Assembly: GCA_963766735.1 (NCBI GenBank)
Contig: CAVYBU010000007.1
Location: 256,001-320,000 of the forward strand
Direction: 5' to 3'
Length of the DNA: 64,000 nt
Source of the DNA: an uncultured Chloroflexia bacterium
Lineage (GTDB): Bacteria; Chloroflexota; Limnocylindria; Limnocylindrales; CSP1-4
A program made the position numbers and the translations under genes. Within the stretch, counting starts at the first letter, position 1. The number at the start of each line of letters is the position of its first letter. This document shows, piece after piece, positions 5,328 through 64,000 of this stretch. Under the pieces are notes generated by a model. The model was given only the letters and a program-made list of their open reading frames with translations. It searched no databases and had not been told where the DNA came from.

Positions 5328-5351
5328 TGGTGTGGGACGACGGGGATGGTC

Positions 5352-8300
5352 CTACGGGACCAGCGTGATCCGATCCTGGGGGCCCGGCGCGACGGGTGAG
5401 TGGGCCTCGACGTACTTGGTGAACGCGTCGACGTCCACGTCCCCGCCGAGGCGGTCCGTGCCCTCCTTCAGGACGGTGTAGTTGTCACCGCCGTCCGCGA
5501 GGAAGTTGTTGACCGTGACCCGGTAGGAGGCCGCCGGGTCGAGCGGCACGCCCGCGATGCGGACGTTCGTCACGATCCCGTCCGGGCCGGCCGTGGCGAG
5601 CCGGTCGTAGGTCAGCGTGTGGGAGACCTGCAGGATGCCGATCCCGCCGGTGAACTGCTGTTCCAGGAGGGCGTCGACCTGGGCACCGGTGAGGGTCATC
5701 GTGACAAGGCTGTTGCCAAACGGCTGGACCGTGAATGCCTCGCTGTAGGTGACCTCGCCGGGCAGCTCGCCGCCGCTGATCTGGTCGTACGTGAGTTCGG
5801 CACGGATGCCGCCCGCGTTCATCAGCGCGATGTCCGCACCGCCGAGCTCGTCGGGGGTGGTCGCCCAGAGCTGGGCGTCCGCGATCACGTCGCCGAGGGC
5901 GGACTCACCGGCCAGGTTGGCCGTGCGGGTGATGGTCTCGGTGATGGAGCCGATGACCTTGTTCGCCAGCGGGGCGGACAGGGTCTTGTACTTGGTGATC
6001 AGCGCGGTGATGTCCTCGTCCGCGGCCACGTCGCGGGTGACGATCACGTTGTTGACCTTCGCCGATGCAACGTCCTTCGTCACCCGGCTGACGGTGAGGT
6101 CGATATCCGTGACAAGACGGCCCTGGTGGGCGGCTCCGGTCACGATCTTGCCGTCCACGACGCAGTTGACGGCCCAGTTGGTGTGGCCGGTGATGACGAC
6201 GTCGATCTCGTCGTCCATTGCCTCGACGATCGGCGGCAGGGCGCCGGTCAGGGTGCCGCAGGAGTTGATCGTCGTCTCATTCAGGGGATCGCTGTTCCGT
6301 CCGCCCTCGTGGAGCAGGACGATGATCGTCTCGATGCCCATCCCCTTGAGCACCGGCACCAGCGCATTGACCGACTCGGCTTCGTCCAGGAAGTCAACGT
6401 GCGAGATGCCTGCGGGGCTCACGATCGACGGCGTGCCCTCGAGCGTCATGCCGACGAGCGCGACGCTCACGCCATTGAAGTCGCGGATCGCAAACGGCGG
6501 AAAGATCGTCTTGCCGCTGTCCTTGTAGACGACGTTGGCGGCGAGATACTCGAAGCTCGCGCCGGCGAAGCCGTCGCCATCCTGGCAGCCGTCGACCGGG
6601 TGGCAGCCGCCGTTCTGCATGCGCAGCAGCTCGTCGACACCCTCGTCGAACTCGTGGTTGCCGACGCCGTTGAAGTCGAGGCCCATCTGGTTGAAGGCCT
6701 CGATCGTGGGCTCGTCGTGGAACAGGGCGGAGACCAGCGGCGTGGCGCCGATCATGTCGCCAGCCGAGACGAACAGCGTGTTCGGGTTCGTTGCGCGGAG
6801 CGCGTTGACGTGGGTCGCCAGGTACTCGGCACCACCCGCGAGCGTCGTGCCGATCCGGCCGCCGGAGCCGCTCGGCGGCTCGAGGTTGCCGTGGAAGTCG
6901 TTGAGGGAGAGGATCTGAATGGTGGCGTACCGGGTCTCGCGCACCCACGCCAAGGCTTCGGCGTTGGTCAGCGTCTGCCTCGGAAGCAGCTGGTTACCCT
7001 CCGGGGTGAAGATCGACGCCTTGAGGGCATAGGCCGTCGGCTGCTTCGCCCAGCCCAGGAGGGTTCGGGCGTCACTGTAGGGCTTCAGCACCGACATGTC
7101 GGGCGAGAGGTCCCACTTGGCCGAGTCGGCGAGCAGGAACAGACCTCCCTGGCGGCTCAGTTGGACGCTGTCCTTCTTCTGGTCCGGAACCTTCACGTCA
7201 GAGGACGAGTCGTCGAACGCCGTCCACAGCAGCTCCCCGTAATCGGCCCGGGTCACCGGATCTGACGCAGTTCCGCTCTGCCACGTGTTGACCGGCGGCA
7301 GGAGGTCGAAGTTGTGGACGTAGACGTCGCTCGGCGAGATCGTCTCCTTGTCCATGATCCAGTTCGTGATCAGCTCGCGAACTTCCGTCGTCGACTGGTA
7401 GAGCTTCTCAGCCGTCGGGAACTTCCCGGTGGCGCGGTAGTTGTTGAGCGCGACCCGGACCATCTGGTCCATCGCCAGCGGCTTGCCGTTGAGCTTGAGC
7501 TCAACCACGCGCTCGCCGACCGGCTTGGTCACGTCCAGCTCGTACTCGATGCCCGACCACAGGTCGTAGTTGTAGTCGCGTACCGCGCTGTTGACCGTGA
7601 CGCCCGTCGGTTCGTAGTAGTACTGGTTGAAGTAGTTGGCGGTCCACTCCAGCTCGTCCTTGATCATCTGGCCGCTGGCCTCGATCACGTAGAGCGTGTT
7701 GTCGTAGATGTAGACCGCGTACGCGTCCTTGAGCTTGATCGGACCCGCGCTCAGCTTGGCGCTGTCGTTGAACAGCGCGGCGAGCGAGGCTTCGACCGGG
7801 AACCCCGCCTTCTCGGCGGCGTCCGTCTGCACGTAGTTGATCAGGTCGGCCATCGGCCCGTCAGCGACGCGCGCCGGGAACCCGCCGGGGAAATCGTCCG
7901 TTGCGGTGCCGATCGGCGTGTTGATGTAGGCGACCGTCGTGTCGTGATACGGCTTCATGAGGGTGAGCAGGTCCGCGTCTTCCGCGACGCCCCTCATGTC
8001 GGGTGTCGTGGAGGACTTGCTGGTGACGGTCCAGTCGCTGCCAGTGCCCGAAACCGTGATCCGGATGTCGGAGACGCTGCGGCCCCAGTAATAGGGCTCC
8101 GTGACAAGGACGCCGTTGATGGTCTCGCCCGGAACCTTGGCGTGTGCATGGCCCGCCAGGATCACGTCGATGCCCGGGACCTCGTTGGCCAGGTACTTGA
8201 CGAAGTTCTCCTCACGACCGTAGCCGTAGGTCTCGTCAAGGCCGCTGTGGGCCGCCACCACGATCACATCCGCGCCTGCGGTGCGCATCTGCGGCACATA

Positions 8301-8936
8301 GGTGTTGGCTGCAGCCATCGCATCACCGAACACGCAATCGACGATGTTCTCGGGCCGCTCCCAGTACTTCACTGCCGGGGGAGTGAGGCCCAGGATGCCG
8401 ACCTGCACGCCGCCGACGTCCTTGATCACGTACGGCACGAAGGTGTAGTCCCGGCAGCCGGTGACGTTCGCCGAGAGCAGCGGGAAGTTGGCCTCGCTCT
8501 GGTACTTGTTGAAGACGCTCGGCCCGTAGTTGAACTCGTGGTTGCCGACGGTGGAGGCGACATACTCCATCTCGTTCATGGCCGCCGCCAGCGGGTTCTC
8601 CTTCGACGTGTCGACCATGTTGAAGTAGTACGCGAGCGGGTTTCCCTGGATCGTGTCGCCGTTGTCGATCAGGATCGTGTTCGGGTTGCTGCCGAGCACT
8701 CCCTTGACGTATGTCTGGATCTTCGTCAGCCCGCGCTCCGAGGAGCTGTTGGTCGGCTCGCTGTCCGTGAAGTAGTCGTAGTTCTGGACATTGCCGTGAA
8801 GGTCGCTCGTGCCAAGGATCGCGAGGTCCTTGGTCTCGAGCGCGCTGACGGTCGCCGCTGGTTGGGCGGGAACGGCGAAGGCTGCGATCAGCAGCGCAGC
8901 GACGACCATCACGGGGATCGGCCTGGAACGTCTCAC
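5352..8936 (-). CDS. Secreted tandem 2',3'-cyclic-nucleotide phosphodiesterase / 5'-nucleotidase (two metallophosphoesterase + 5'-nucleotidase-C modules, SLH-like linker)
   Basis: Two sets of metallophosphoesterase motifs (TSDLHG/DNGD/GNHEFN/GHAH and LNDFHG/SAGD/GNHEFD/GHTN); signal peptide; GTG start at 8936 with GGAGGT RBS. Confidence 0.9.
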   Translation of the reverse strand: MRRSRPIPVMVVAALLIAAFAVPAQPAATVSALETKDLAILGTSDLHGNVQNYDYFTDSEPTNSSSERGLTKIQTYVKGVLGSNPNTILIDNGDTIQGNPLAYYFNMVDTSKENPLAAAMNEMEYVASTVGNHEFNYGPSVFNKYQSEANFPLLSANVTGCRDYTFVPYVIKDVGGVQVGILGLTPPAVKYWERPENIVDCVFGDAMAAANTYVPQMRTAGADVIVVAAHSGLDETYGYGREENFVKYLANEVPGIDVILAGHAHAKVPGETINGVLVTEPYYWGRSVSDIRITVSGTGSDWTVTSKSSTTPDMRGVAEDADLLTLMKPYHDTTVAYINTPIGTATDDFPGGFPARVADGPMADLINYVQTDAAEKAGFPVEASLAALFNDSAKLSAGPIKLKDAYAVYIYDNTLYVIEASGQMIKDELEWTANYFNQYYYEPTGVTVNSAVRDYNYDLWSGIEYELDVTKPVGERVVELKLNGKPLAMDQMVRVALNNYRATGKFPTAEKLYQSTTEVRELITNWIMDKETISPSDVYVHNFDLLPPVNTWQSGTASDPVTRADYGELLWTAFDDSSSDVKVPDQKKDSVQLSRQGGLFLLADSAKWDLSPDMSVLKPYSDARTLLGWAKQPTAYALKASIFTPEGNQLLPRQTLTNAEALAWVRETRYATIQILSLNDFHGNLEPPSGSGGRIGTTLAGGAEYLATHVNALRATNPNTLFVSAGDMIGATPLVSALFHDEPTIEAFNQMGLDFNGVGNHEFDEGVDELLRMQNGGCHPVDGCQDGDGFAGASFEYLAANVVYKDSGKTIFPPFAIRDFNGVSVALVGMTLEGTPSIVSPAGISHVDFLDEAESVNALVPVLKGMGIETIIVLLHEGGRNSDPLNETTINSCGTLTGALPPIVEAMDDEIDVVITGHTNWAVNCVVDGKIVTGAAHQGRLVTDIDLTVSRVTKDVASAKVNNVIVTRDVAADEDITALITKYKTLSAPLANKVIGSITETITRTANLAGESALGDVIADAQLWATTPDELGGADIALMNAGGIRAELTYDQISGGELPGEVTYSEAFTVQPFGNSLVTMTLTGAQVDALLEQQFTGGIGILQVSHTLTYDRLATAGPDGIVTNVRIAGVPLDPAASYRVTVNNFLADGGDNYTVLKEGTDRLGGDVDVDAFTKYVEAHSPVAPGPQDRITLVP

Positions 8937-9174
8937 GGGGGCACCTCCGAGGACGAGGGCAAGTGGAGACGCATCAGGTCCGCCCTCTCCGCGGACCAGC
9001 ACTCAGGCAATGACAGAACGCTACTCCCCGAAGCGCGTCTCCGGCACGGCCGAACGGCAGTCGATTCGTGCCGGATGGGCCCTTCTCGATGCCATCGCCA
9101 CCGTAGCGGTGCCCATGCGCACCACCAATTCCTGCGCAAGGGCCGCATAAGGGGCGCCTGCGAGGCTCCGAGGC

Positions 9175-23027: not shown

Positions 23028-23648
23028 TCAGCGTGCGGAGCGCAGGGCCTCCGCGAGAGCCGCGACCACGAGGGATCTCGTCTCAGCGGGCGAGCCGCTC
23101 GTGTCGAGGACCCACGTCGCGGCCGGCCGCAGGCGATCCGCAAGGCCGGCCTGGGCCGCGATCCGCTGGTCCGCATCCGCCTCCGGCGTTCCCCGGCCGA
23201 CGAGTCGTTCGCGCTGCGCCACAGGGTCGCAGACCACCAGCCAGACCTGGTCGCACGTGGCCGCCAGCCCGCCCTCGACCAGCTTGATCGCCTCGATCGC
23301 CACAGCTGGCGCGCCGGCCGTCTCCGCGGCCTCGATCGCCTCGACGATGCGCGGCCGGACGGCAGGGTGAACGATCTGCTCGAGGTTGCGGAGGGCGACC
23401 GGGTCCGAGAACACGATCCGGCCGAGCGCCGCGCGATCCAGAGTCCCGTCCGGGCCGGTCACCGCCGCCCCGAACCTCCGGATGACGAGGTCGTGGGCGG
23501 GATGCCCCGGGGCCGTGACCGACTGCGAGATCCGGTCCGCGTCCACGACGTGGACGCCCAGCTCAGCGAGCCACCGGACGACCTGCGACTTGCCGCAGCC
23601 GATCGGTCCCGTGATCCCGATACGGACGGTGCGCGGTCTGGTCGTCAC
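23028..23648 (-). CDS. coaE: Dephospho-CoA kinase
   Basis: IGITGPIGCGKS, VVDAD, LDRAALGRIVF, LEQIVHPAV; GTG start overlaps the ABC-F stop. Confidence 0.93.
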   Translation of the reverse strand: MTTRPRTVRIGITGPIGCGKSQVVRWLAELGVHVVDADRISQSVTAPGHPAHDLVIRRFGAAVTGPDGTLDRAALGRIVFSDPVALRNLEQIVHPAVRPRIVEAIEAAETAGAPAVAIEAIKLVEGGLAATCDQVWLVVCDPVAQRERLVGRGTPEADADQRIAAQAGLADRLRPAATWVLDTSGSPAETRSLVVAALAEALRSAR

Positions 23649-32433: not shown

Positions 32434-33228
32434 TCAGCCGACGCGTCGCGAGAGAACACGGAGGCCGATCATCATTGCACCGACGACGAGCGTCACCGCG
32501 GCGAGCGCGAGAAGGATGACGTTCCCCGGCGTCGCCGCTGTCTCCTGGCTGTCTGCCAAGACCCGGCTCGCGTCGCCGGACGGCGCGGCCACCTCGGCCG
32601 GCGGCGACGCCTGGCGGACGCCCTCGTTCGAGGTGTCGGCATTCGCGTCAGAACTCTTGTCCGTCCCGGGTGCCCGGGACCCGGCGTACATATCGGCCTC
32701 CGGCGCCGTGACCGCACCCTGGATGTCCGGGGAGTCCGGGGCGACGGTGGCGCTGACATCGCCGCCCTCGGCGACTGGCGATCCATCAGCCATTGGCGGT
32801 GCCGCGAGGAGCGGGGCCTCTGCGGGCGCCGCACCCGCCGTGGCGCCGCCCAGGGGCAGCCCGGTGCCGGCGAGGAGGATGCCCACGAGGCCCAGGGCGG
32901 CGAGCCCGGACCCCAGCGGAGCGGCAAAGGCGAAGCGAGGCCCGGCGAACGGCGCGAGGAGCCGGCGCCAGCCGGCGGGACGGAGGGACGCGGCCTCTTC
33001 GGCGGTCAGGCGGAAGTCGCGGGTGCGGCGGGGCGCCGGCATGAGCGGCAGGGCCGCGGCGATCGCGCGCAGATCGTGGTGGAGGGCCGCGCACGCGGCA
33101 CACCCGGCGACCTGGGCGGTCGCGGCCTCGAGCTCCGCGCCCGTGGCGTCACCCGCGGCATAGGCGGCGACGAGGACGGGATCGTGGGCGGCGTGGGCGG
33201 CGGGCGTGGCGGCGGCGGGGTGCGGCAT
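32434..33228 (-). CDS. Putative ZAS-like membrane anti-sigma factor, copy A
   Basis: HD..LVAAYA...QVAGCAACAALHHDL (CxxC), PRRTRDFRLT, TM segment, Ala/Pro-rich region, C-terminal TM; downstream of an ECF sigma. Confidence 0.75.
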   Translation of the reverse strand: MPHPAAATPAAHAAHDPVLVAAYAAGDATGAELEAATAQVAGCAACAALHHDLRAIAAALPLMPAPRRTRDFRLTAEEAASLRPAGWRRLLAPFAGPRFAFAAPLGSGLAALGLVGILLAGTGLPLGGATAGAAPAEAPLLAAPPMADGSPVAEGGDVSATVAPDSPDIQGAVTAPEADMYAGSRAPGTDKSSDANADTSNEGVRQASPPAEVAAPSGDASRVLADSQETAATPGNVILLALAAVTLVVGAMMIGLRVLSRRVG

Positions 33229-33239
33229 GTCCCTGCCAT

Positions 33240-33265
33240 GACGACGCGACGGGCCCGGCGGTTCC
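33240..33265 (-). promoter_or_regulatory. Putative ECF-sigma promoter for anti-sigma copy A
   Basis: Minus strand reads GGAAC-N17-CGTCA, with the CGTC ending 11 nt before the ATG at 33228. Confidence 0.6.
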
Positions 33266-33269
33266 AGGG

Positions 33270-34012
33270 TCAGGGAGCGCGGACCGCAGACCGTCCCGCG
33301 AAACGCAGCACCACCAGGGCCAGGCCGGCCATGAGGGCAACCAGGGAGACCGCCAGCGCCATCGGAATTGCCGATCCGTTGTCGTCCCTGGCCGCCTTGT
33401 CCTCGGCGCCCGCGCCCGGTGCTGCCGGGTCGGCCGGCTGCGCGGCCAGCTGCGGGTCAATGCTCGCGTCGGGAACGCCGGCCACCGAGGGCTCTCCCTG
33501 CGCCATCACGGCGTCCTCCGGCGAGGGCGTCTGCATGTCCAAGGCTGGCGCCGGTGCCATCTCCGCCCCATTGGAGGTTGCGCGCTCGGCCTCTGCGGGC
33601 GCCGCACCCGCCGTGGCGCCGCCCAGGGGCAGCCCGGTGCCGGCGAGGAGGATGCCCACGAGGCCCAGGGCGGCGAGCCCGGACCCCAGCGGAGCGGCAA
33701 AGGCGAAGCGAGGCCCGGCGAACGGCGCGAGGAGCCGGCGCCAGCCGGCGGGACGGAGGGACGCGGCCTCTTCGGCGGTCAGGCGGAAGTCGCGGGTGCG
33801 GCGGGGTGCCGGCATGAGCGGCAGGGCCGCGGCGATCGCGCGCAGATCGTGGTGGAGGGCCGCGCACGCGGCACACCCGGCGACCTGGGCGGTCGCGGCC
33901 TCGAGCTCCGCGCCCGTGGCGTCACCCGCGGCATAGGCGGCGACGAGGACGGGATCGTGGGCGGCGTGGGCGGCGGGTCGACGGCGGGCGTGGCGGCGGC
34001 GGGGTGCGGCAT
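33270..34012 (-). CDS. Putative anti-sigma factor, copy B (frameshifted near codon 11-13 as sequenced)
   Basis: ATG overlaps the sigma stop (TGATG). An 11-nt insertion relative to copy A shifts the frame; the rest is intact in the 33270..34061 ORF frame. Confidence 0.65.
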
Positions 34013-34629
34013 CAGCCCTCCTCCCCGCGGAACAGGCCCATGGTGCCCTCGAGCTGCTCACGCAGGGCCAGGCGGCCGCGATGGATCCGGGACTTCACGG
34101 TCCCCAGCGAGACGCCCGTCAGATCGGCGATCTCCGCATAGTCGTAGCCCTCCACGTCGAACATGACGATCGCGTGGCGTTGATGAGGGGTGATCGCCGC
34201 GAGGGCCGCCCGTAGCACGCGCGCCCGCTCGCCGTGCATCGCCGTCCGCTCGGGGTCCGCCTCGGGGCCGGCTGGTGGCTGCCAGGTCTCGTCCTCAAGC
34301 TCTGGGTAGGGCTGGGACGGGCGGCGCTTCTTGAGCCGCTGCTGGTCCATCGCCGCGTTGATCGCGATCCGGCTCAGCCACGCGCGGACGCTGCCGCCGC
34401 GGAACGAGCGCATGTTCCGGTACGCGGAGAAGAACGCCTCCTGGACGGCGTCCGACGCCTGGTCGCGGTCCGGGACCATGCGGGCAACGAGCGAGAACAG
34501 GTGGTCCTGGTAGCACTCGACGAGATCGTTGAAGGCGTCGAGGCTGCCGTCGCGTGCCTTCTCCAGCAGGATCAGGTCGCGGCGCTGGATGGGATCCTCG
34601 ACGGCCCCCGACGGCCGGGCGTCCTGCAC
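34012..34629 (-). CDS. ECF sigma-70 family RNA polymerase sigma factor
   Basis: DAVQEAFFSAY, WLSRIAINAAMD, region 4 YAEIADLTGVSLGTVKSRIHRGR; GTG at 34629 follows an AGGAGG RBS (ORF-track start 34680). Confidence 0.92.
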   Translation of the reverse strand: MQDARPSGAVEDPIQRRDLILLEKARDGSLDAFNDLVECYQDHLFSLVARMVPDRDQASDAVQEAFFSAYRNMRSFRGGSVRAWLSRIAINAAMDQQRLKKRRPSQPYPELEDETWQPPAGPEADPERTAMHGERARVLRAALAAITPHQRHAIVMFDVEGYDYAEIADLTGVSLGTVKSRIHRGRLALREQLEGTMGLFRGEEG

Positions 34630-34800
34630 GACGGGCGCGACCCTCCTGGCGACGGTGGTGAGGCGCGCCGAGTCTAGCATCGGGGTGCGGTGGAAACGCC
34701 GATCGCGGGAACGCCGATCGCGGCGACGAGGCTGGGCATCGCGGTTGGGACGCCAGGCGACCTGCCGAGGTTCCCTCGTCGGCTACGATGGCCTCTGCCT

Positions 34801-34886
34801 GGCGAAGTGGCGGAATGGCAGACGCGACGGTCTCAAACACCGTTGGCCGCAAGGTCGTGTGGGTTCGAATCCCACCTTCGCTACCA
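34801..34886 (+). tRNA. tRNA-Leu(CAA)
   Basis: Acceptor stem GGCGAAG/CTTCGCT-A-CCA, anticodon stem ACGGT/ACCGT with loop CTCAAAC, long variable arm, GGTTCGAATCC T-arm. Confidence 0.96.
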
Positions 34887-35143
34887 CAATTGGCAGCAAT
34901 CCCGCACTCGTACGGACAGTCGGGTCGTTTGTGGGCGACCCGAGATTGCCAAGTCATTCCAGGCCGATGCTACTTCGCGAGCGACAGCGAGCGCATCTGC
35001 CGCCCGTACCCTGCTAGCGGATGCCCGGCGACGAACCGCGGCTGACCGATCGGCAGGGTATGAGGGCGATCGCTGCCTCAGGGAGTCGGCGTCTGAGCGC
35101 GGTAGCGCGTGTCCCGCCCCGGGGGCCGGGACACGCGGATCTC

Positions 35144-35488
35144 TTGACCAACGGCCTTTCGCCGGCTCGCCACCCGAAGCGCGGCTCCACGCTCATCCGC
35201 CTGACGCTCGCCGCACAGGTCGCCGATCTGCTGACGTTCCTGCTCGCGGTGGCCATCGAGCCGGACCTCGTCTCGTTCGAGGTAGGTCCGATCGGTGCCA
35301 TCTACGCGGTCGGAGGTCCGGTAGCGGCGACGGCGTTCAAGGTCGCAGGACTGGCCGTGGTGTTCGCCGCGCTGGCCGTCTACCGCGGTCGCCTCACGAA
35401 ACCGATCCTGGTCGCCGTCTTGGCACTCGGCGCGGTCGGTGCCGTTGCGAACGTGCACGCGCTGCTGGTTGCCGGGGGTCTCATCTGA
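35144..35488 (+). CDS. Small membrane protein, DUF5658-like (start uncertain: 35021, 35060 or 35144)
   Basis: ADLLTF...EVGP...GGPVAATAFKVAG pattern with three hydrophobic helices. Confidence 0.55.
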   Translation: MTNGLSPARHPKRGSTLIRLTLAAQVADLLTFLLAVAIEPDLVSFEVGPIGAIYAVGGPVAATAFKVAGLAVVFAALAVYRGRLTKPILVAVLALGAVGAVANVHALLVAGGLI

Positions 35489-35722
35489 TCCGCGGGTGCC
35501 AGATGTCTCCCTTCTGACACGCGGCAAGTACCAACCGTGCCCGGCTCAGACACATCGCCTGACCGATCCGCAGGGCCAGCAGGCGACATGGGGGCCGATG
35601 AGGCCTGTTGCCCCTTGGCGGCGACAGTCACCGCAGCGACCATGTTGGACCGAGGCTGAGCTGTGGTCGGCAGCCACACCGACGGCCGCCAGTCGCGAAC
35701 GTCTCAACGCAGGAGGCATCAC

Positions 35723-35884
35723 GTGGGGATCAACCGGACGCTGTTCGCTGCCGGTCTGCTGGTCGCCTTTGGCGCCGCCACGCTCCTGGTGCTGAACGTC
35801 CTCGAGTCAGGTCCTGCTGCCGCAATCGGCATCCTGGGGATCGGCCTGATTGCCGCTTCGGGTCGTACGCGACCCAGCCGCTAG
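35723..35884 (+). CDS. 53-aa two-TM membrane protein
   Basis: AGGAGG RBS, then GTG; MGINRTLFAAGLLVAFGAATLLVLNVLESGPAAAIGILGIGLIAASGRTRPSR. Confidence 0.65.
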   Translation: MGINRTLFAAGLLVAFGAATLLVLNVLESGPAAAIGILGIGLIAASGRTRPSR

Positions 35885-36070
35885 TGACCCACCTCCAGCC
35901 CAGCACTCGCCCGACCGATCGGCAGGGCCAGCGGGCGACCGGGGGCGTCGCTGCTTCTGGCAGAAAATGTGGCGCAATTGGGGCGGACGGAGGCGGCTAC
36001 GCGGACCGAAATAGAACGCCGTTCGTGCGGGAATTGGGACACCGCGGACACCGGCGGACGCTATCCGGGC

Positions 36071-36128
36071 GTCTCAAACACCGTTGGCCGCAAGGTCGTG
36101 TGGGTTCGAATCCCACCTTCGCTACCAC
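36071..36128 (+). repeat. att-like duplication of the tRNA-Leu 3' part
   Basis: Identical to 34830-34887 (GTCTCAAAC...GCTACCAC), starting at the anticodon arm. Confidence 0.95.
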
Positions 36129-36188
36129 GGCCCCTGTGCCCGATCGGGCCCAGGCCACCCAAATATGGCGCCAGAGGAGGCCAACGGG

Positions 36189-36389
36189 TTGAGCAACAAG
36201 CACCACAGCGAGAGCAGCAAGTCGCACAACGCCCGCAAGAAGCACGACCAGCAGGCCCGCCAGCACGAACAGGCGACGGGCAATCCCTGGCACGAGTCGA
36301 AGGGCGCCCGAATCGGGATGGCCGCGATCGCCATCATCGCGGTGGTGTCGCTGACCCTGCTGTTCCTGGGCGGCGTCATCAAGTGGTAG
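36189..36389 (+). CDS. Small basic protein with a C-terminal TM helix
   Basis: GAGGAGG RBS, then TTG; SNKHHSESSKSHNARKKH...IAIIAVVSLTLLFLGGVIKW. Confidence 0.65.
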   Translation: MSNKHHSESSKSHNARKKHDQQARQHEQATGNPWHESKGARIGMAAIAIIAVVSLTLLFLGGVIKW

Positions 36390-36492
36390 GCGCGGTGGTC
36401 GACGCCACCGTGTCCCCCCGCCCGAACCCGGCTTGGGCCGCGAGCCGGTAGACTCCCGGCTGCGCAAACCGTCAACCTTCCGCGGAGTCCAC

Positions 36493-37068
36493 ATGAGCCT
36501 CTTTCGCCGCGTCCTGAACCTCGATGCCCCCGACTCGCCCGATCTCCCGGTCCATCCCGACGCGCCGCTGCCGGCTGCAACTGCCGCCGAGACCGACAGC
36601 GTGCGGACGATCTCGATCCGCCTGGAGGCCCTGCCGCCGGCCCGGGCACGATACGTCGCGGCGTTCGCCTACCTGCTCGGCCGCGCCGCGCATGCGACGG
36701 GCGACATGAGCGACGCCGAGCGCGCCGCGATGCTGCGCATCGCCGACGCCGGCGGTCTCGACGCGGAGACCGCACCGCTCGTGATCGACCTGGCCGGAAC
36801 GCTGGCCGGCGAGTTCGGCGCGACGGAGGACTTCCTCGTCACTCGCGAGTTCAAGGCGATCTCGACGATGGAGGAGCGGGAGCGGCTCCTGCGCTGCTGC
36901 TTCCTCGTGATGGCGGCCGATGACGAGATCGACGCGACCGAGTCCTGGCTGGCGAACCGCCTGGCGGAGGAGCTGGACGTCGAGCGCCCGGATCTCAATC
37001 GCATCCGCGAGGAGTTCCACGAGCAGCTGTCCGGCGTGCGCGAGCTCCGGGAGCTCCAGGCCGGCTGA
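36493..37068 (+). CDS. TerB-like family protein
   Basis: AAFAYLLGRAAHATGDMSDAE and CFLVMAADDEIDATE...LAEELDV, a duplicated TerB-like motif. Confidence 0.8.
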   Translation: MSLFRRVLNLDAPDSPDLPVHPDAPLPAATAAETDSVRTISIRLEALPPARARYVAAFAYLLGRAAHATGDMSDAERAAMLRIADAGGLDAETAPLVIDLAGTLAGEFGATEDFLVTREFKAISTMEERERLLRCCFLVMAADDEIDATESWLANRLAEELDVERPDLNRIREEFHEQLSGVRELRELQAG

Positions 37069-37171
37069 ACGGCGCCACGTGCGGGGGATCCTCGCCGGGC
37101 GGAGGAGTGCGCCACCGGCGCCGCCTGCCACCTGCCGCACGCGCGCGCGACACGCGCCCGCGCCGGGGGCC

Positions 37172-40100
37172 TCAGGCCAGCTGGAGGTCGATCACACCCT
37201 CGCCGACGCGACGTCGCACCTCGGCGACCAGCTCCGCGTCGTAGGCCACACCCCGCAGCTCCATCGGCAACGCGCTGCCCCCCGGGGCCGGCACGTGCAC
37301 GATCACGCGCGTCGCGCCAGGCCTCTCCCTCAGCACGCCCTTGAACGCCTGCATCGCGGCCAGGACGCGATCCGTCGCGGCACCGCGGGCGAAGCGGATG
37401 TTGAGCACGGCACCGGGAGCCGCCTCAACGGGACGTGACGGGGCATCGTTGGCCGCCGCGGCGCGGGAGCGCTGTTCGTCGGGGAGCGGCGGCGACTCGG
37501 GCTCGTCGGTTCCCTCGAGCCCCGTCGCTCCCGGCGGCTCCGCGTATGTTGGGACGGGCTCGGCCGGACGGAGCGGGCCACCGCCGCGGCCGTTGGCGCC
37601 GCTGCCGTTGCCGTTGTCCCGGGCGCCGTTCCCGTTTCCGCCACCGCGGGCGCCGACGCCGCTCCCCCCTGGAGCTCCCCCACCCCGTCGCGCCGCCCGC
37701 TTGTCCAGCGAGCCGACGTCCTTCGCGAACGCCTCCGGCCCGCGATCCGCGACGGCATCCCAGTCCCAGACCGAGTCGGCCAGCAGCGAGGCCTCGTCGC
37801 CCCGGTGGTCCACGCGTCCGGCCACCAGCAGGATCGCGCCGTCGCGCCAGGTCCCCACCGTCTGCTCGTACGTCTTCGGGAAGACCACCACCTCGAGAGT
37901 CCCCTGCAGGTCCTCGAGCGTGACGACCGCCATCATGCTCTTCGACTTGGTGAGCACCGAGCGGATCCCGGTCACGATCCCGCCCAGGACCACGCGCTGA
38001 CCGTCGAGCGACTCGTCCTTGAGGTCTCCGGAGTACGCCGTCACGAACTGCCCGACGCGTTCCGCCACCTCGCCCATCGGGTGATCCGAGAGGTAGAGCC
38101 CCATGAGCTCCTTCTCCCAGCGGAGACGCTCCCTGACCGGGGTCTCCGGCGTGGACGGCAGCGGCCGCTCCAGCGTGGAGGACTCGTCGCCGGTCATGTC
38201 GAACAGCGACGTCTGGCCGCTGATCCGGTCGCGCTGCGCGGCCTGGCCCGCGGCGAGCGCGTCGTCCAGGCCCATCAGGATCTGGGCCGGGTGCCCGAGA
38301 ACGTTGAGCGCTCCGACCTTGGCGAGTGACTCCAGCACCTTGCGGTTGGTGAGACGCAGGTCAACACGAGTGCAGAAGTCCGTCAGCGAGCGGAACTCAC
38401 CGCCCTCCTCGCGGGCCTTGATGATCGACTCGATCGCGCCCTCACCGACGTTCTTGACCGCCAGCAGCCCGAACCGGATGGCGTCGCCCTCGACCGTGAA
38501 CCCCAGCCCCGACTCGTGGACGTCCGGCGTGCGCACCTCGATGCCCAGGCGCCGGCACTCGGCGATCGCGGCCGCGACCTTCTCCGCGTTGTCCCGGAAC
38601 GCGGAGAGCACGGACGTCATGTACTCGACGGTGTAGTTCGCCTTGAGGTATGCGGTCTGGTACGCGATCAGCCCGTAGCAGGTCGCGTGGGCCTTGTTGA
38701 ACCCGTACCGCTCGAAGGGCTCGAACGCCTTGAACACCGCGTCGATGGTCTTTGCCGGCACGCCGCGCTCCGCGGCCCGCTCGACGAAGGTCTCCCGCAT
38801 CGACTGGAGCACCGCCCGCTTCTTCTTGCGGATGGCGTAGCCCAGCATGTCCGCCTCGGGCCCCGAGAAGCCGCCCAGGGCGATGGCGGCGGACATGATG
38901 TCCTCCTGGTACACGAAGATCCCGTACGTCCGGTTGAGGAACGGCTCCAGGAGCGGGTGGAGATACGTCACCGGCTCCTGGCCGTGCTTGCGCCGGATGT
39001 AGGCCGGGATGTTGTCCATCGGGCCCGGGCGGTAGAGCGCCACCATGGCCGCAAGGTCGAAGACGGACGTCGGCTGGAGCTCCTTGACGTAGCGGCGCAT
39101 CCCCGCGGACTCAAGCTGGAAGACACCCGTTGTCTCACCCGACGCGAGGAGATCGAAGGTCTTCGAATCGTCGAGCGGGATGTTGTCCAGGTCCACCGCG
39201 ATGTCGCGGTCCTCCTTGATCAGGTCCACGGCCTTGCGCAGGATCGTGAGGTTGGACAGGCCCAGGAAGTCGAACTTGAGCAGGCCCAGCGCCTCGATGC
39301 CGTGCATCTCGTACTGGGTCATCAGCGCGTCCGAGTTGGTCGCCTTCTGGAGCGGCATCAGCTCCGTCAGCGGCTCCCGCGAGATCACGACCCCGGCGGC
39401 GTGCGTGGACGCGTTCCGGGCCACACCCTCCAGTTGCTTCGCGAGCCCGATCAGCTTCCCGATCTGCGGATCCCCGTCGTGCATCTCCTTGAGCTGCGGG
39501 GAGAGCTGCAGTGCCTCCTCCAGCTTGATGCCCAGCTGGTTCGGGACCGCCTTGGCGATCCGGTCCACGTCCCCGTAGGACATCCCCAGCACGCGCCCGA
39601 CGTCCCGGATCGCGGCGCGGGCGAGCATCGTGCCGAAGGTGATGATCTGCGCGACGTGGTCCTGGCCGTACTTGCGGCTGACGTAGTTGATGACCTCGTC
39701 CCGGCGCTCGTCCTCGAAGTCCACGTCGATGTCCGGCATCGTCACGCGGTCCGGGTTGAGGAACCGCTCGAAGGGGAGGTCGTAGTGGAGCGGGTCCACC
39801 GGCGTGATGCCCAGCGTGTAGGTGACGATGGACCCGGGCGCCGACCCCCTGCAGGTGGTGGCGATCCCTTCCTGGCGTGCGAACCGCACGAAGTCCGCCA
39901 CGATCAGGAAGTAGCCGGCGTAGCCCATGGAGATGATCACGCCCAGCTCGTAGTCCAGGCGCTGCTGGAGGGCCGGGGTGATCACCCCGTAACGGCGGAC
40001 GAGGCCCGCCTCGCACTCCTTGCGCAGCCAGGTCTCCACCGTCTCGCCGTCGGGCACCGGGAAGTGCGGGATCCGGAGGTCGCCCAGCGGCAGCTTCAGG

Positions 40101-62574: not shown

Positions 62575-64000
62575 GCGGCGACTCGCTGGGCAGGCGTGGG
62601 GGTGGATGGGTCCGTGAGCAGCGCCAGATCTCGCGGCTGGACCCGGCGCCAGTCGGCGTCCGTCGTCGCGCCCTCGTACGCGCGCGCCCCCCGGAGCAGG
62701 GATGCCTCGGACCAGGGCGCGCCGATCATCTGGAGGCCGACGGGCAGGCCCTCCGAAAGGCCGCACGGGATCGAGATCGCGGGCAACCCGGCCATGCTGA
62801 CCGGCAGGGTGCAGGTGTCGGACAGGTACATCTGCACCGGGTCCGCGGTGCGGGCGCCGAGCGGGAAGGCGACGCTGGGTGAGGTCGGCGCCACCAGGGC
62901 GTCGAACCCGGCCGCCCACAGCATGTCGAAGTCCCGCTTGATCAGCGTCCGGACCTTCTGCGCCTTGAGGTAGAACGCGTCGTAGTAGCCGGCGGACAGC
63001 GCGTACGTGCCCAGCATGATCCGGCGCTTGACCTCTGGCCCGAAGCCCTGGCCTCGCGTGGCGAGGTAGTTCGCAAGGTAGTCGTCCCCGCCTCGGACGC
63101 TGTAGCCGAACCGGACGCCGTCGTAACGGGCGAGGTTGGCGGACGCCTCCGCCGGGGCGACGATGTAGTACGTGGCCAGGCCGTAGTCCGTGTGCGGGAG
63201 GCTGACCTCCTCCACCGTGGCACCGGCCGCCTCGAGGGACGCGACGGCCTCCCGGATGCGCGCCGCCACCCCGGGCTCCATGCCCTCGACGAAGTACTCC
63301 CTCGGCAGGCCGAAGCGCTTGCCCCGGAGCCACGACGCCGCCTCGTCGTCCGAGGCCGGGAGCCCGAGCAGGTCGTCGGGCACCGGCACCGGCGCGGAGG
63401 TGGAGTCCCGCTCGTCGCGCCCGGAGACCGCGTGAAGCAGCGCGGCGGCATCGCGCACGTCGCGACCGAGCGGTCCGACCTGGTCCAGCGAGCTCGCGAA
63501 GGCCACGATCCCGTACCGGCTCACTCGCCCGTAGGTCGGCTTCATCCCCACGATCCCGCACATCGCCGCCGGCTGGCGGACGGAGCCGCCGGTGTCCGTG
63601 CCGATGGACGAGCGGGGTCTGGTACGCCGCGACCGAGGCCGCGGACCCGCCGCTGGACCCGCCGGGGACGCGATCCAGGGCCCACGGGTTGGCCGTCGGC
63701 CCGAACGCGGAGTGCTCCGTGGAGGAGCCCATCGCAAACTCGTCCATGTTCGTCTTGCCCAGGATCACGGCCCCGGCATCCCGCAGGCTCTCCGTGATGT
63801 GGGCGTCGAACGGGGCGCGGTACCCCTCCAGGATGCGGGAGCCGGCCGTGCACTGGCCACCCTTGACGGATACGAGGTCCTTGAGCCCCACCGGGATGCC
63901 CAGCAGCGGGTGGAGTCGGTCCACCGCGCCGGCGCCCTCGCCGCGGGCGCCGGCCAGGCGAGCGTCGGCAACGTCCGCCTCGGCCAAGGCCCGCTCGTCG
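62538..64000 (-). CDS. gatA: Asp/Glu-tRNA amidotransferase subunit A (5' end outside the window; frameshift near 63610)
   Basis: [25 protein letters not shown] in one frame, then [33 protein letters not shown] in the next. Confidence 0.93.

Follow-up and report, generated by a model that had tools for sequence, protein, structure and literature searches.

A co-oriented 53-nt repeat between the cargo modules of small tRNA-integrated islands in uncultured Chloroflexia

Three copies of a short repeat bracket two small open reading frames (ORFs) close to a tRNA gene in an uncultured Chloroflexia bacterium, and the locus raises the question of what such a repeat is and how an array built around it came to lie there. 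The locus is part of a 64,000-nt stretch of DNA (here called the window) on contig C7 of the genome G000, which measures 3.62 Mb and has a G+C content of 70.6%. A sequence-only reading of the window had described a cassette-like layout with a covarying hairpin, and had suggested recombination sites of a non-integron gene-cassette array stored at a tRNA or, alternatively, a small structured RNA or an element like a repetitive extragenic palindrome (REP). We compared the locus with other genomes, all of them metagenome-assembled and with arrays frequently at contig ends, and with known systems. The three copies lie in a discrete insertion at tRNA-Leu(CAA) and belong to a family of co-oriented DNA elements that recurs between the cargo modules of tRNA-linked islands; we tentatively interpret the element as a boundary of such modules.

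The tRNA-Leu(CAA) gene at 34801..34886 (+), identified by ARAGORN and matching the Rfam tRNA model with 58.1 bits, is intact, served as the integration target and forms the left end of the island. Its 3′ part from the anticodon loop on (attL core, 34830..34887, +) is repeated at 100% identity over 58 nt in the partial tRNA at 36071..36128 (attR core, +), with a spacing of 1,241 bp between the two direct repeats (repeat search and blastn). Storage at a tRNA had been seen from the sequence, but the tRNA-Leu(CAA) gene with its perfect 58-nt 3′ duplication had been overlooked. When the segment 34000-37100 was searched against the 60 other genomes of the genus, the closest relative, G214, proved to have an exact empty site, in which the flank with the sigma-factor and tRNA genes and the downstream flank overlap by 58 nt at 92-93% identity. 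The flanks of G006 and G014 likewise overlap by exactly 58 nt and those of G442 by 73 nt, and these are empty sites as well. Other members of the genus carry unrelated inserts of ∼0.6-9 kb at the same site; the insert of G424 at this place is 8.3 kb long and holds seven copies of the repeat. Because the tRNA duplication is perfect and relatives have the empty site, 34888-36070 is a discrete insertion, of the type made by tRNA-targeting tyrosine integrases.

Of the hallmarks of a tRNA-integrating island, two are present, an insertion in a tRNA gene whose 3′ part recurs as a direct repeat at the far end of the island and an empty site in relatives, and an integrase inside the island is lacking. 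The ORF list, the Pfam scan and a search with PF00589 gave none in 34888-36070; the left arm (34888..35023, +) contains neither an integrase gene nor a recognisable remnant, and PF00589 had no match in contig C7 near 291 kb. Since an integrase is present in a sibling island at tRNA-Pro in the same genome, the island in the window would be a decayed member of its kind. The repeat-bearing stretch starts 137 nt past tRNA-Leu(CAA) and stops 122 nt short of the second 58-nt copy. The left arm begins with CAATTGG, a word that recurs at 35975-35981 and, as AATTGG, at 36032-36037. The right arm, from the last repeat to attR (35949..36070, +), contains a tandem (C)GGACACCG at 36037-36053 plus GCGGAC at 36054-36059, read directly from the sequence, which are candidate integrase arm-type sites. 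In G214, a tRNA-Cys island has a segment between repeat and attR (L036 7478-7630) to which 35908-36067 aligns at 71% over 163 nt (blastn).

Metagenome contigs from four DNA runs of four studies, all of them short, were compared with the locus. In one contig (X4), which starts at 36071, the 14 letters ahead of this point match the tRNA bases that precede the repeat; this fits an empty site in a relative, but 8 of 153 letters differ. The joints 34886>36447 and 35587>35908 were each seen in one contig with a 30-letter side; they possibly stem from other organisms or repeats and were given no weight.

Within the island, the three exact copies of GACCGATCSGCAGGG at 35044, 35561 and 35913 (+) and the repeat-ORF-repeat-ORF-repeat layout were recovered as the sequence-only reading had given them. 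The 64-kb window has no other exact copy and, at up to two mismatches, a single further match at 23594 (-), and the entire genome has six exact copies. A repeat search delimited a 39-nt family at 35038-35076 (64% to the reference), 35555-35593 and 35907-35945 (87%), and the nhmmer profile placed copy 1 at 35024..35077 (+; E 1.5e-6, model positions 8-61), copy 2 at 35539..35594 (+; E 5.7e-12) and copy 3, the terminal copy of the array, at 35896..35948 (+; E 3e-12). The stem is CGCCTG/CAGGCG in copy 2 and CGCCCG/CGGGCG in copy 3, and the 7-bp versions read earlier, TCGCCTG/CAGGCGA and TCGCCCG/CGGGCGA, are indeed present. Copy 1 is truncated; it departs from the family after GCAGGG at ∼35062, and the bases that follow resemble the flank of copy 3, also as first described. 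In metagenome contigs, 35908-35946 of copy 3 bears many different flanks.

Each gap between copies holds one open frame. ORF1 (35144..35488, +; frame open from 35021) encodes a hydrophobic protein of ∼114 aa, and just upstream of it lies an inverted repeat with 15-bp arms that are 93% complementary and separated by 2 nt (35106..35137; repeat search). ORF2 (35723..35884, +), also from the ORF list, encodes a hydrophobic protein of 53 aa and has a GTG start 7 nt after GGAGG. It is preceded by a spacer or leader past copy 2 (35595..35722, +), which has no Rfam match and whose first ∼35 nt are GGCCGATGAGGCCTGTTGCCCCTTGGCGGCG; this sequence recurs after other copies of the family, for example at L037 5872-5800 (82% over 74 nt, blastn). 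Neither ORF matches a Pfam or NCBIfam family. The membrane part of ORF1 (35167-35488) has 75% nucleotide identity to genes beside tRNA-Arg(TCT) at L092 (G433:C34) and L093 (G020:C6) in two other species, and since these homologues have no repeat nearby, this cargo gene has chromosomal-looking relatives elsewhere.

The copies belong to a family of ∼53-nt DNA elements with the consensus CCCCGGCTCCGCACCGCGCCTGACCGATCGGCAGGGCCAGCGGGCGACCGGGGCG, to which 57 copies align. A central block of ∼35 nt is at least 90% conserved across them, and the whole is imperfectly palindromic around CCGATCGG. A profile search of this genome gave ten significant copies and one partial copy at a contig end, on one strand throughout and at three loci: the window, the start of the window's contig, and the end of contig C2 just past tRNA-Pro(GGG) and a 314-aa tyrosine integrase. 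Nothing else in the genome matched with E below 0.1. In total, the profile found 69 matches in 28 fetched sources from nine genomes of the genus, and pattern searches showed clusters in G015, G424, G401, G370 and G214 and single copies in G283, G346 and G014. Among 400 genomes of the family, a tally that takes in one unpublished genome (G239) on which no result here depends, those outside the genus gave only two-mismatch matches, at about control level. The exact 21-mer was found in 22 stretches among 185,579 species genomes (one each), 16 of them in records of metagenome-assembled genomes (MAGs) of uncultured Chloroflexia. The remaining six are singletons in other phyla that cover the central 21-30 nt only (Thermocatellispora, Cupriavidus twice, two Verrucomicrobiota MAGs and a Nitrospiraceae MAG; L073, L074, L083, L085, L086, L090), and they are probably chance or coding-sequence matches, one frame reading LTDRQG. 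The motif is thus neither missing elsewhere nor scattered genome-wide. In related genomes, nearly all of its copies lie in islands linked to tRNAs, where they separate short genes that are unrelated to one another and the content differs by species, much as a cassette-like array had led one to expect. In the main texts of the literature on c-di-GMP-II-GAG riboswitches, gene cassettes and integrons, and tRNA islands in Chloroflexi, we found no description of the element; the work found on gene cassettes dealt throughout with classical integrons.

The islands in relatives share a common anatomy. Arrays adjoin the genes of tRNA-Leu(CAA), Leu(TAA), Pro(GGG), Gln(CTG), Asn and Cys. In the 14 loci with at least two copies, all copies of a locus lie on one strand, except in L027, where two copies stand either side of a tRNA. 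Copies lie on the strand of the adjoining tRNA in 13 of 14 loci; only those of L028 (tRNA-Val) do not. Seven islands are bounded by a tRNA and a partial copy of 38-58 nt, and in these the repeats lie in between (blastn). The terminal copy is found 100-125 nt before the partial tRNA in the window and in L018, L024, L036 and L039, and is degenerate in L002. The gap that follows it holds short tandem direct repeats that differ by tRNA specificity (for example GGACACCG, TACCCCCAA, GTACCCAAC and TGGTAGCAA), which, judging from their position and form, may be integrase arm-type sites. Beside the tRNA, the sibling tRNA-Pro island (L002) encodes the 314-aa PF00589 integrase (5342-6283); L039 and L017 retain C-terminal integrase stubs only at this place.

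The modules between the repeats have been acquired, deleted and duplicated, and the ends of these changes fall in the repeat or close to it but at no constant position. Two arrays of G424 share, at 90% identity, a 570-bp module whose membrane-protein gene is reversed; the flanks are unrelated, and the homology runs from the 5′ third of the left repeat to an early position in the right one. In G015, L015 13161-13330 and 18950-19113 share 110 nt upstream together with a repeat that carries two private substitutions, and divergence begins at the last base of the repeat. In G214, an extra SRPBCC-like module lies between two repeat-plus-riboswitch heads where G000 has one head, and this single head is a chimera whose switch point is inside the riboswitch and not in the repeat. 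Truncated copies break at positions ∼37, 39, 45, 46 and 52. Such scattered breakpoints favour homologous recombination between module heads over a fixed crossover. For the proposal that the copies are recombination sites, the cassette-like layout therefore stands, whereas dedicated sites are not borne out, given the heterogeneous breakpoints and the lack of a recombinase that co-occurs with the arrays.

The covarying hairpin did not survive the alignment. No helix pair has changed on both sides, and there are no compensatory pairs in the 57 copies, which are too alike for a strong test of covariation. At the variable pair, 45 copies have U.G, 5 have C-G, 3 have U-A and 4 are unpaired; both variants in the window are therefore one-sided departures from U.G, independent of each other. 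Only 3 of the 57 copies have the seventh pair (T-A), paired cells amount to 83.0% against a mean of 83.2% in 500 shuffles, and an alternative inner helix also lacks covariation. Folds of five plus-strand and three minus-strand copies gave one significant z-score against shuffles (plus strand: -0.29, +0.62, +0.81, -0.55 and -3.30), and a search of window positions 33000-38000 against Rfam (15) with E up to 1 returned the tRNA only. The family is defined by sequence conservation and not by structure, and a structured RNA was rejected on the strength of the Rfam result, the single significant z-score and the two helices that do not covary.

Most of the cargo is small and diverse: lipoproteins and membrane proteins without known family, pairs of extracytoplasmic function (ECF) sigma and anti-sigma factors, and also SnoaL, SRPBCC, hydrolase, DUF4760 and FG-GAP proteins. 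In sibling arrays of G000, a cyclic di-GMP riboswitch of class c-di-GMP-II-GAG (RF03169) starts 28-58 nt after four copies and is followed by a secreted-protein gene. The six RF03169 matches score 55-77 bits, above the gathering threshold of 40 bits, and lie in L001 (G000:C7; 1823-1909, 2913-2999, 5530-5616, 6863-6948 and 8174-8259) and L002 (G000:C2 345000+; 8898-8983); Rfam gave none in the window island. The A+T content rises directly past the repeat, and xAxxxT hexamers are concentrated at offsets 9-11 past GGGCGAC, where 16 of 58 copies have one, compared with 0-4 copies at any other offset. Of these -10-like boxes, several have an ATG or GTG 6-7 nt further on. By rough, GC3-based heuristic gene calls, 39 of 62 copies have a gene start on their own strand within 250 nt downstream and 23 have a stop on that strand within 250 nt upstream, and convergent or divergent neighbouring genes are common as well. 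Since some copies abut expression signals, either a -10-like box with a start codon or a c-di-GMP-II riboswitch, a protein-binding or promoter-proximal role of the element probably accounts for its conservation. By eye, no convincing match to an ECF-type or sigma-70 -35 element was found inside the repeat. The three copies in the window lack all of these signals: copy 3 precedes only the arm, and a scan of 34700-36300 gave neither promoter- nor terminator-like sites at them.

Several observations stand beside these results. Six RF03169 riboswitches in ∼16 kb of island DNA, each before a small lipoprotein or secreted-protein gene without known family, represent an unusual density on mobile cargo. 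A protein of ∼80 aa (...KAWEQYAFD...REWTAVA...), often frameshifted and usually placed divergently beside a repeat, is encoded at L027 2826-3068 (+), L015 18754-18990 (-), L017 14761-15054 (-), G000:C7:5070-5261 and other places. It has 23 matches in G401, 17 in G446, 16 in G015 and 3 in G000, matches no family in Pfam or NCBIfam, and the Atlas clusters closest to it are unnamed. It was rejected as a co-occurring partner, with no match in the repeat-bearing genomes G424, G214 and G370 and five in G118, which is free of the repeat at up to two mismatches. A sub-family, T2, has the ends of the main family and a different middle with its own hairpin potential (G000:C2:353336-353386 and 359060-359109; C7:8093-8142, 8797-8846 and 446083-446105 (-)); it was found only in G000, G214, G442 and G012 among 61 genomes of the genus. 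Two T2 copies read GCCCCGG-CGA-CCGGGGC and then TTTCTT, which is terminator-like. A third, short form, GACCGGCCAGCTCGGCGAGCGGCGACCGGGGG, precedes apparently leaderless genes. A generic pattern of conserved ends, GGCTCCGC ... GCGACCGGGG with one mismatch each, had 137 matches against 109 for the backward control and was dropped as unspecific, and a looser version was useless. An origin of the repeat ends from tRNA ends was also discarded: none of the G000 tRNAs terminates in the 5′ portion, and the likeness of the 3′ CCGGGGGCG to the ends of tRNA-Arg(CCT/TCT) extends over 9 nt only and was attributed to chance.

Two further features concern the tRNA genes themselves. Directly after tRNA-Gln, Asn and Pro stands a conserved hairpin, CACGAAANAGSCCCTCCGG...CCGGAGGGGCTTTCG (L017 6274-6330, L018 5392-5450, L002 5263-5320, and in L039 and L037), followed by tandem GTACCC-type words and then by the integrase 3′ end; it is probably a tRNA terminator carried on the element, plus arm sites. 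In G000, the last 16 bases of tRNA-Pro(CGG) occur seven times in tandem, and those of tRNA-Arg(CCG) and tRNA-Arg(TCG) five times each (contigs C3/C8/C19/C26, C9/C19/C24 and C20/C27). We read these end repeats as tandem island accretion and, because their junction sequences are unlike the 53-nt repeat, as a system separate from it, in a genome that has many tRNA islands.

How, then, does the array relate to known systems? The sequence-only reading had set it apart from integrons, and rightly so. In none of the five carrier genomes searched (G000, G015, G424, G401 and G214) does the integron integrase model TIGR02249 exceed its cut-off of 265 bits, the best score being 96.8 bits, and the island integrase L002:5342-6283 reaches 53.1 bits. 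In G015, the genome with the most copies, PF00589 has only two matches, on another contig and far from the arrays, in an assembly that is 71% complete. Integron attC sites are defined by their R″ (RYYYAAC) and R′ (GTTRRRY) ends; as had been noted for the window, such ends occur neither in the consensus nor in the 57 aligned copies. Of the features of an integron, the islands show co-oriented sites between single short genes and a variable content, and they lack the integrase, the attC ends and structure-preserving covariation. Among integrons, the comparison applies above all to sedentary chromosomal ones, whose attC families are homogeneous (Cury et al. 2016, PMC4889954). Integron cassette arrays and the present arrays have in common that similar, co-oriented and imperfectly palindromic repeats of 50-60 nt lie between short, diverse and mostly unknown genes, that the content varies between relatives and that sub-families of the repeat are restricted to lineages. 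Unlike integrons, the arrays described here lie inside tRNA-integrated islands, have breakpoints that are not fixed, and include copies directly before promoter-like boxes or riboswitches.

Within the same phylum, the ssrA-specific islands of Dehalococcoides offer a second comparison. According to the abstract of McMurdie et al. 2011 (PMC3146451), these islands have separable integration and cargo modules, integrate at a small-RNA gene whose 3′ part they duplicate as a direct repeat, are numerous in each lineage, have an integration module phylogenetically distinct from their cargo and add much to the diversity among strains. This resembles the islands reported here, whose cargo differs, as far as that abstract goes, in being subdivided by a conserved co-oriented 53-nt repeat. 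The present islands also differ in that many are tiny (1.2-3 kb), their integrase is missing or reduced to stubs, and several tRNAs are used. Cis-mobilisable elements (CIMEs) of streptococci are bounded by attL and attR, have lost their recombination genes and move only via an integrase acting in trans. The window island, a short att-bounded element without recombination genes that would likewise move only with an integrase supplied by another element, is similar to them; we know of no counterpart to the internal repeat array in CIMEs. The stoperators of cluster A mycobacteriophages, JUMPStart/ops elements and the conserved boundaries that have been proposed for phage module junctions are orientation-fixed intergenic sites of 8-39 nt with known binding proteins. 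They share with our element one short sequence of constant orientation in the gaps of horizontally acquired genes and a possible role as a point of modular exchange; the element in these islands, in contrast, is 53 nt long, has no known binding protein, and also stands before reversed genes and at the island end. Dispersal in both orientations, as in REP sequences, bacterial interspersed mosaic elements or miniature inverted-repeat transposable elements (MITEs), was not seen, the 10 + 1 copies of G000 occupying three loci on one strand. Nor do the copies resemble intrinsic terminators, since no T-run follows the three copies in the window.

From these observations we infer how the modules recombine and what regulatory role the element may have. 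The reading that we prefer, and to which we give a little less than an even chance, is that the 53-bp element is a double-stranded DNA boundary element of cargo modules in tRNA-integrating islands that provides portable homology for exchange. The island would have entered the 3′ half of tRNA-Leu(CAA) by site-specific recombination of the tyrosine-integrase type and would subsequently have lost its integrase, so that 34888-36070 represents the decayed cargo of a small integrative island. The element would be the conserved boundary or 'head' of each cargo module, with one copy before each and the last before the arm and attR, all pointing from the intact tRNA toward its partial copy. Because the same sequence stands in direct orientation between unrelated modules and at different tRNAs, it would offer portable homology, at which modules may be duplicated, deleted and swapped, mostly by homologous or illegitimate recombination and not by one fixed crossover.

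Several points weigh against this. The scattered breakpoints rest on three mapped module-level events, we know of no protein that binds the element, and its 35-nt core is longer than usual operators and promoters. The three copies in the window are not followed by a -10-like box, and a consensus scan found no sigma-70-type promoter in 34700-36300. Where -10-like boxes exist, the GGCCAG 17 bp upstream of them is, by our own reading, unlike a -35 hexamer. Some modules have their gene on the opposite strand, the duplicated G424 module among them, and a convergent gene comes next after 22 of 62 copies, about a third. Finally, if circles were inserted one after another by site-specific recombination, a uniform direct orientation and n+1 sites for n modules would be expected.

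This last expectation belongs to a rival reading, in which the copies are dedicated site-specific recombination sites, analogous to attC, and circles with one site each are inserted into arrays on tRNA islands. The recombinase would be the island tyrosine integrase acting on a second type of site, or an unrecognised enzyme, and the attP arm-core unit would itself be a cassette. Besides the orientation and number of sites, such a reading would explain the terminal site beside the attR arm in tRNA-Leu, Asn, Cys and Pro islands, the palindrome around CCGATCGG, the small, diverse and mostly unknown cargo genes in either orientation, and the duplicated G424 module with its ends in repeats. The conserved core agrees with it too, 35 nt being the size of known recombinase sites, as do sub-families restricted to a lineage, such as T2 in G000 and its close kin, for integrons have species-specific attC families. 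It is opposed by the integrase searches, which found no integron integrase in any of the five carriers and 53 bits for the island enzyme, and which placed the PF00589 matches of G015 far from its arrays and only integrase stubs in the islands checked. Structural covariation is missing, and the breakpoints vary from the 5′ third (G424) over the last base (G015) to the riboswitch (G000/G214), with truncations at several positions. We consider dedicated sites unlikely, though worth keeping in mind, and think no better of the recombinase scheme that would go with them.

The remaining explanations, which are serial accretion, a role at the RNA level and a selfish repeat, are less likely than either the boundary-element or the dedicated-site reading. 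A copy could be the conserved right-end segment of a mini-element left by serial integration, the arrays having grown by tandem accretion and later shed their inner arm and core sequences. In at least five islands, arm-like repeats and a tRNA core adjoin the last copy, the repeat-to-attR stretch of the window has a homologue in another island, the tandem 16-mers at tRNA-Pro(CGG), tRNA-Arg(CCG) and tRNA-Arg(TCG) show that accretion may occur in this genome, and the 3′ flank of copy 1 resembles that of copy 3. Internal copies nevertheless lead into start codons, riboswitches and other genes rather than into arm or tRNA-core remnants, the arrays checked contain no extra tRNA fragments, and the other accretion arrays of the genome use different junction sequences; such a relic seems improbable. 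We are equally doubtful that the element acts in RNA, where it would mark the 3′ end of each cargo gene as a transcription terminator or insulator, as a processing site or as a small structured RNA. Copies 2 and 3 do lie 51 and 12 nt past stop codons, same-strand stops precede 23 of 62 copies, a long imperfect hairpin can be folded, the plus-strand G.U pairs fit RNA, and the 3′ part of T2 looks terminator-like in our own reading. Set against this are the fold z-score significant in one of five plus-strand copies, the zero compensatory pairs with pairing no higher than in shuffles, the lack of a T-run past the window copies, with the sole terminator-like site in 34700-36300 lying elsewhere, the lack of an Rfam family, and an orientation that stays fixed even beside a reversed gene. 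Least probable is a MITE- or REP-like repeat that spread by itself into the intergenic DNA of islands. The element is a short imperfect palindrome with inverted ends CCCCGG...CCGGGG, is multi-copy and confined to one genus, and has many different flanks in metagenomes; yet a 3.6-Mb genome contains only 10-11 copies at three loci, each array has a single orientation, no target-site duplication was seen by eye, and Pfam scans of arrays, with 25 and 34 proteins, gave no transposase.

Two observations elsewhere in the sequences are reported for completeness. Upstream of the tRNA gene, tandem paralogous frames of 263-264 aa at 32434-33228 (-) and 33270-34061 (-) lie downstream of an ECF sigma gene (34012-34680, -). 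They share long identical stretches, 33001-33228 being 95% identical to 33774-34012, and look like a recent tandem duplication of a putative anti-sigma gene. ARAGORN also called over-long tRNAs of 94 nt at window positions 63524-63617 and of 98 nt at L001 5246-5343, the latter overlapping a pseudogene of the 80-aa protein; both are probably false calls.

To our knowledge, integrons are the only well-understood bacterial way of keeping ordered libraries of single-gene cassettes. That the islands harbour a non-integron cassette system, in which the 53-nt element is the capture site for single-gene circles, is unlikely. If it were true, it would be a second, independent cassette-capture system, and an exchangeable arm-core (attP) 'cassette' would let one cargo pool be re-targeted to different tRNAs. 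The more cautious reading of shared module heads and portable homology would explain how tiny, integrase-less islands at different tRNAs can share and swap cargo, including riboswitch-controlled secreted proteins and ECF sigma modules. The element also provides a simple sequence handle for retrieving such arrays from metagenomes. A soil and sediment lineage of Chloroflexia has an integron-like layout made of other parts, namely tRNA-targeting islands and a lineage-specific co-oriented repeat, without an integron integrase.

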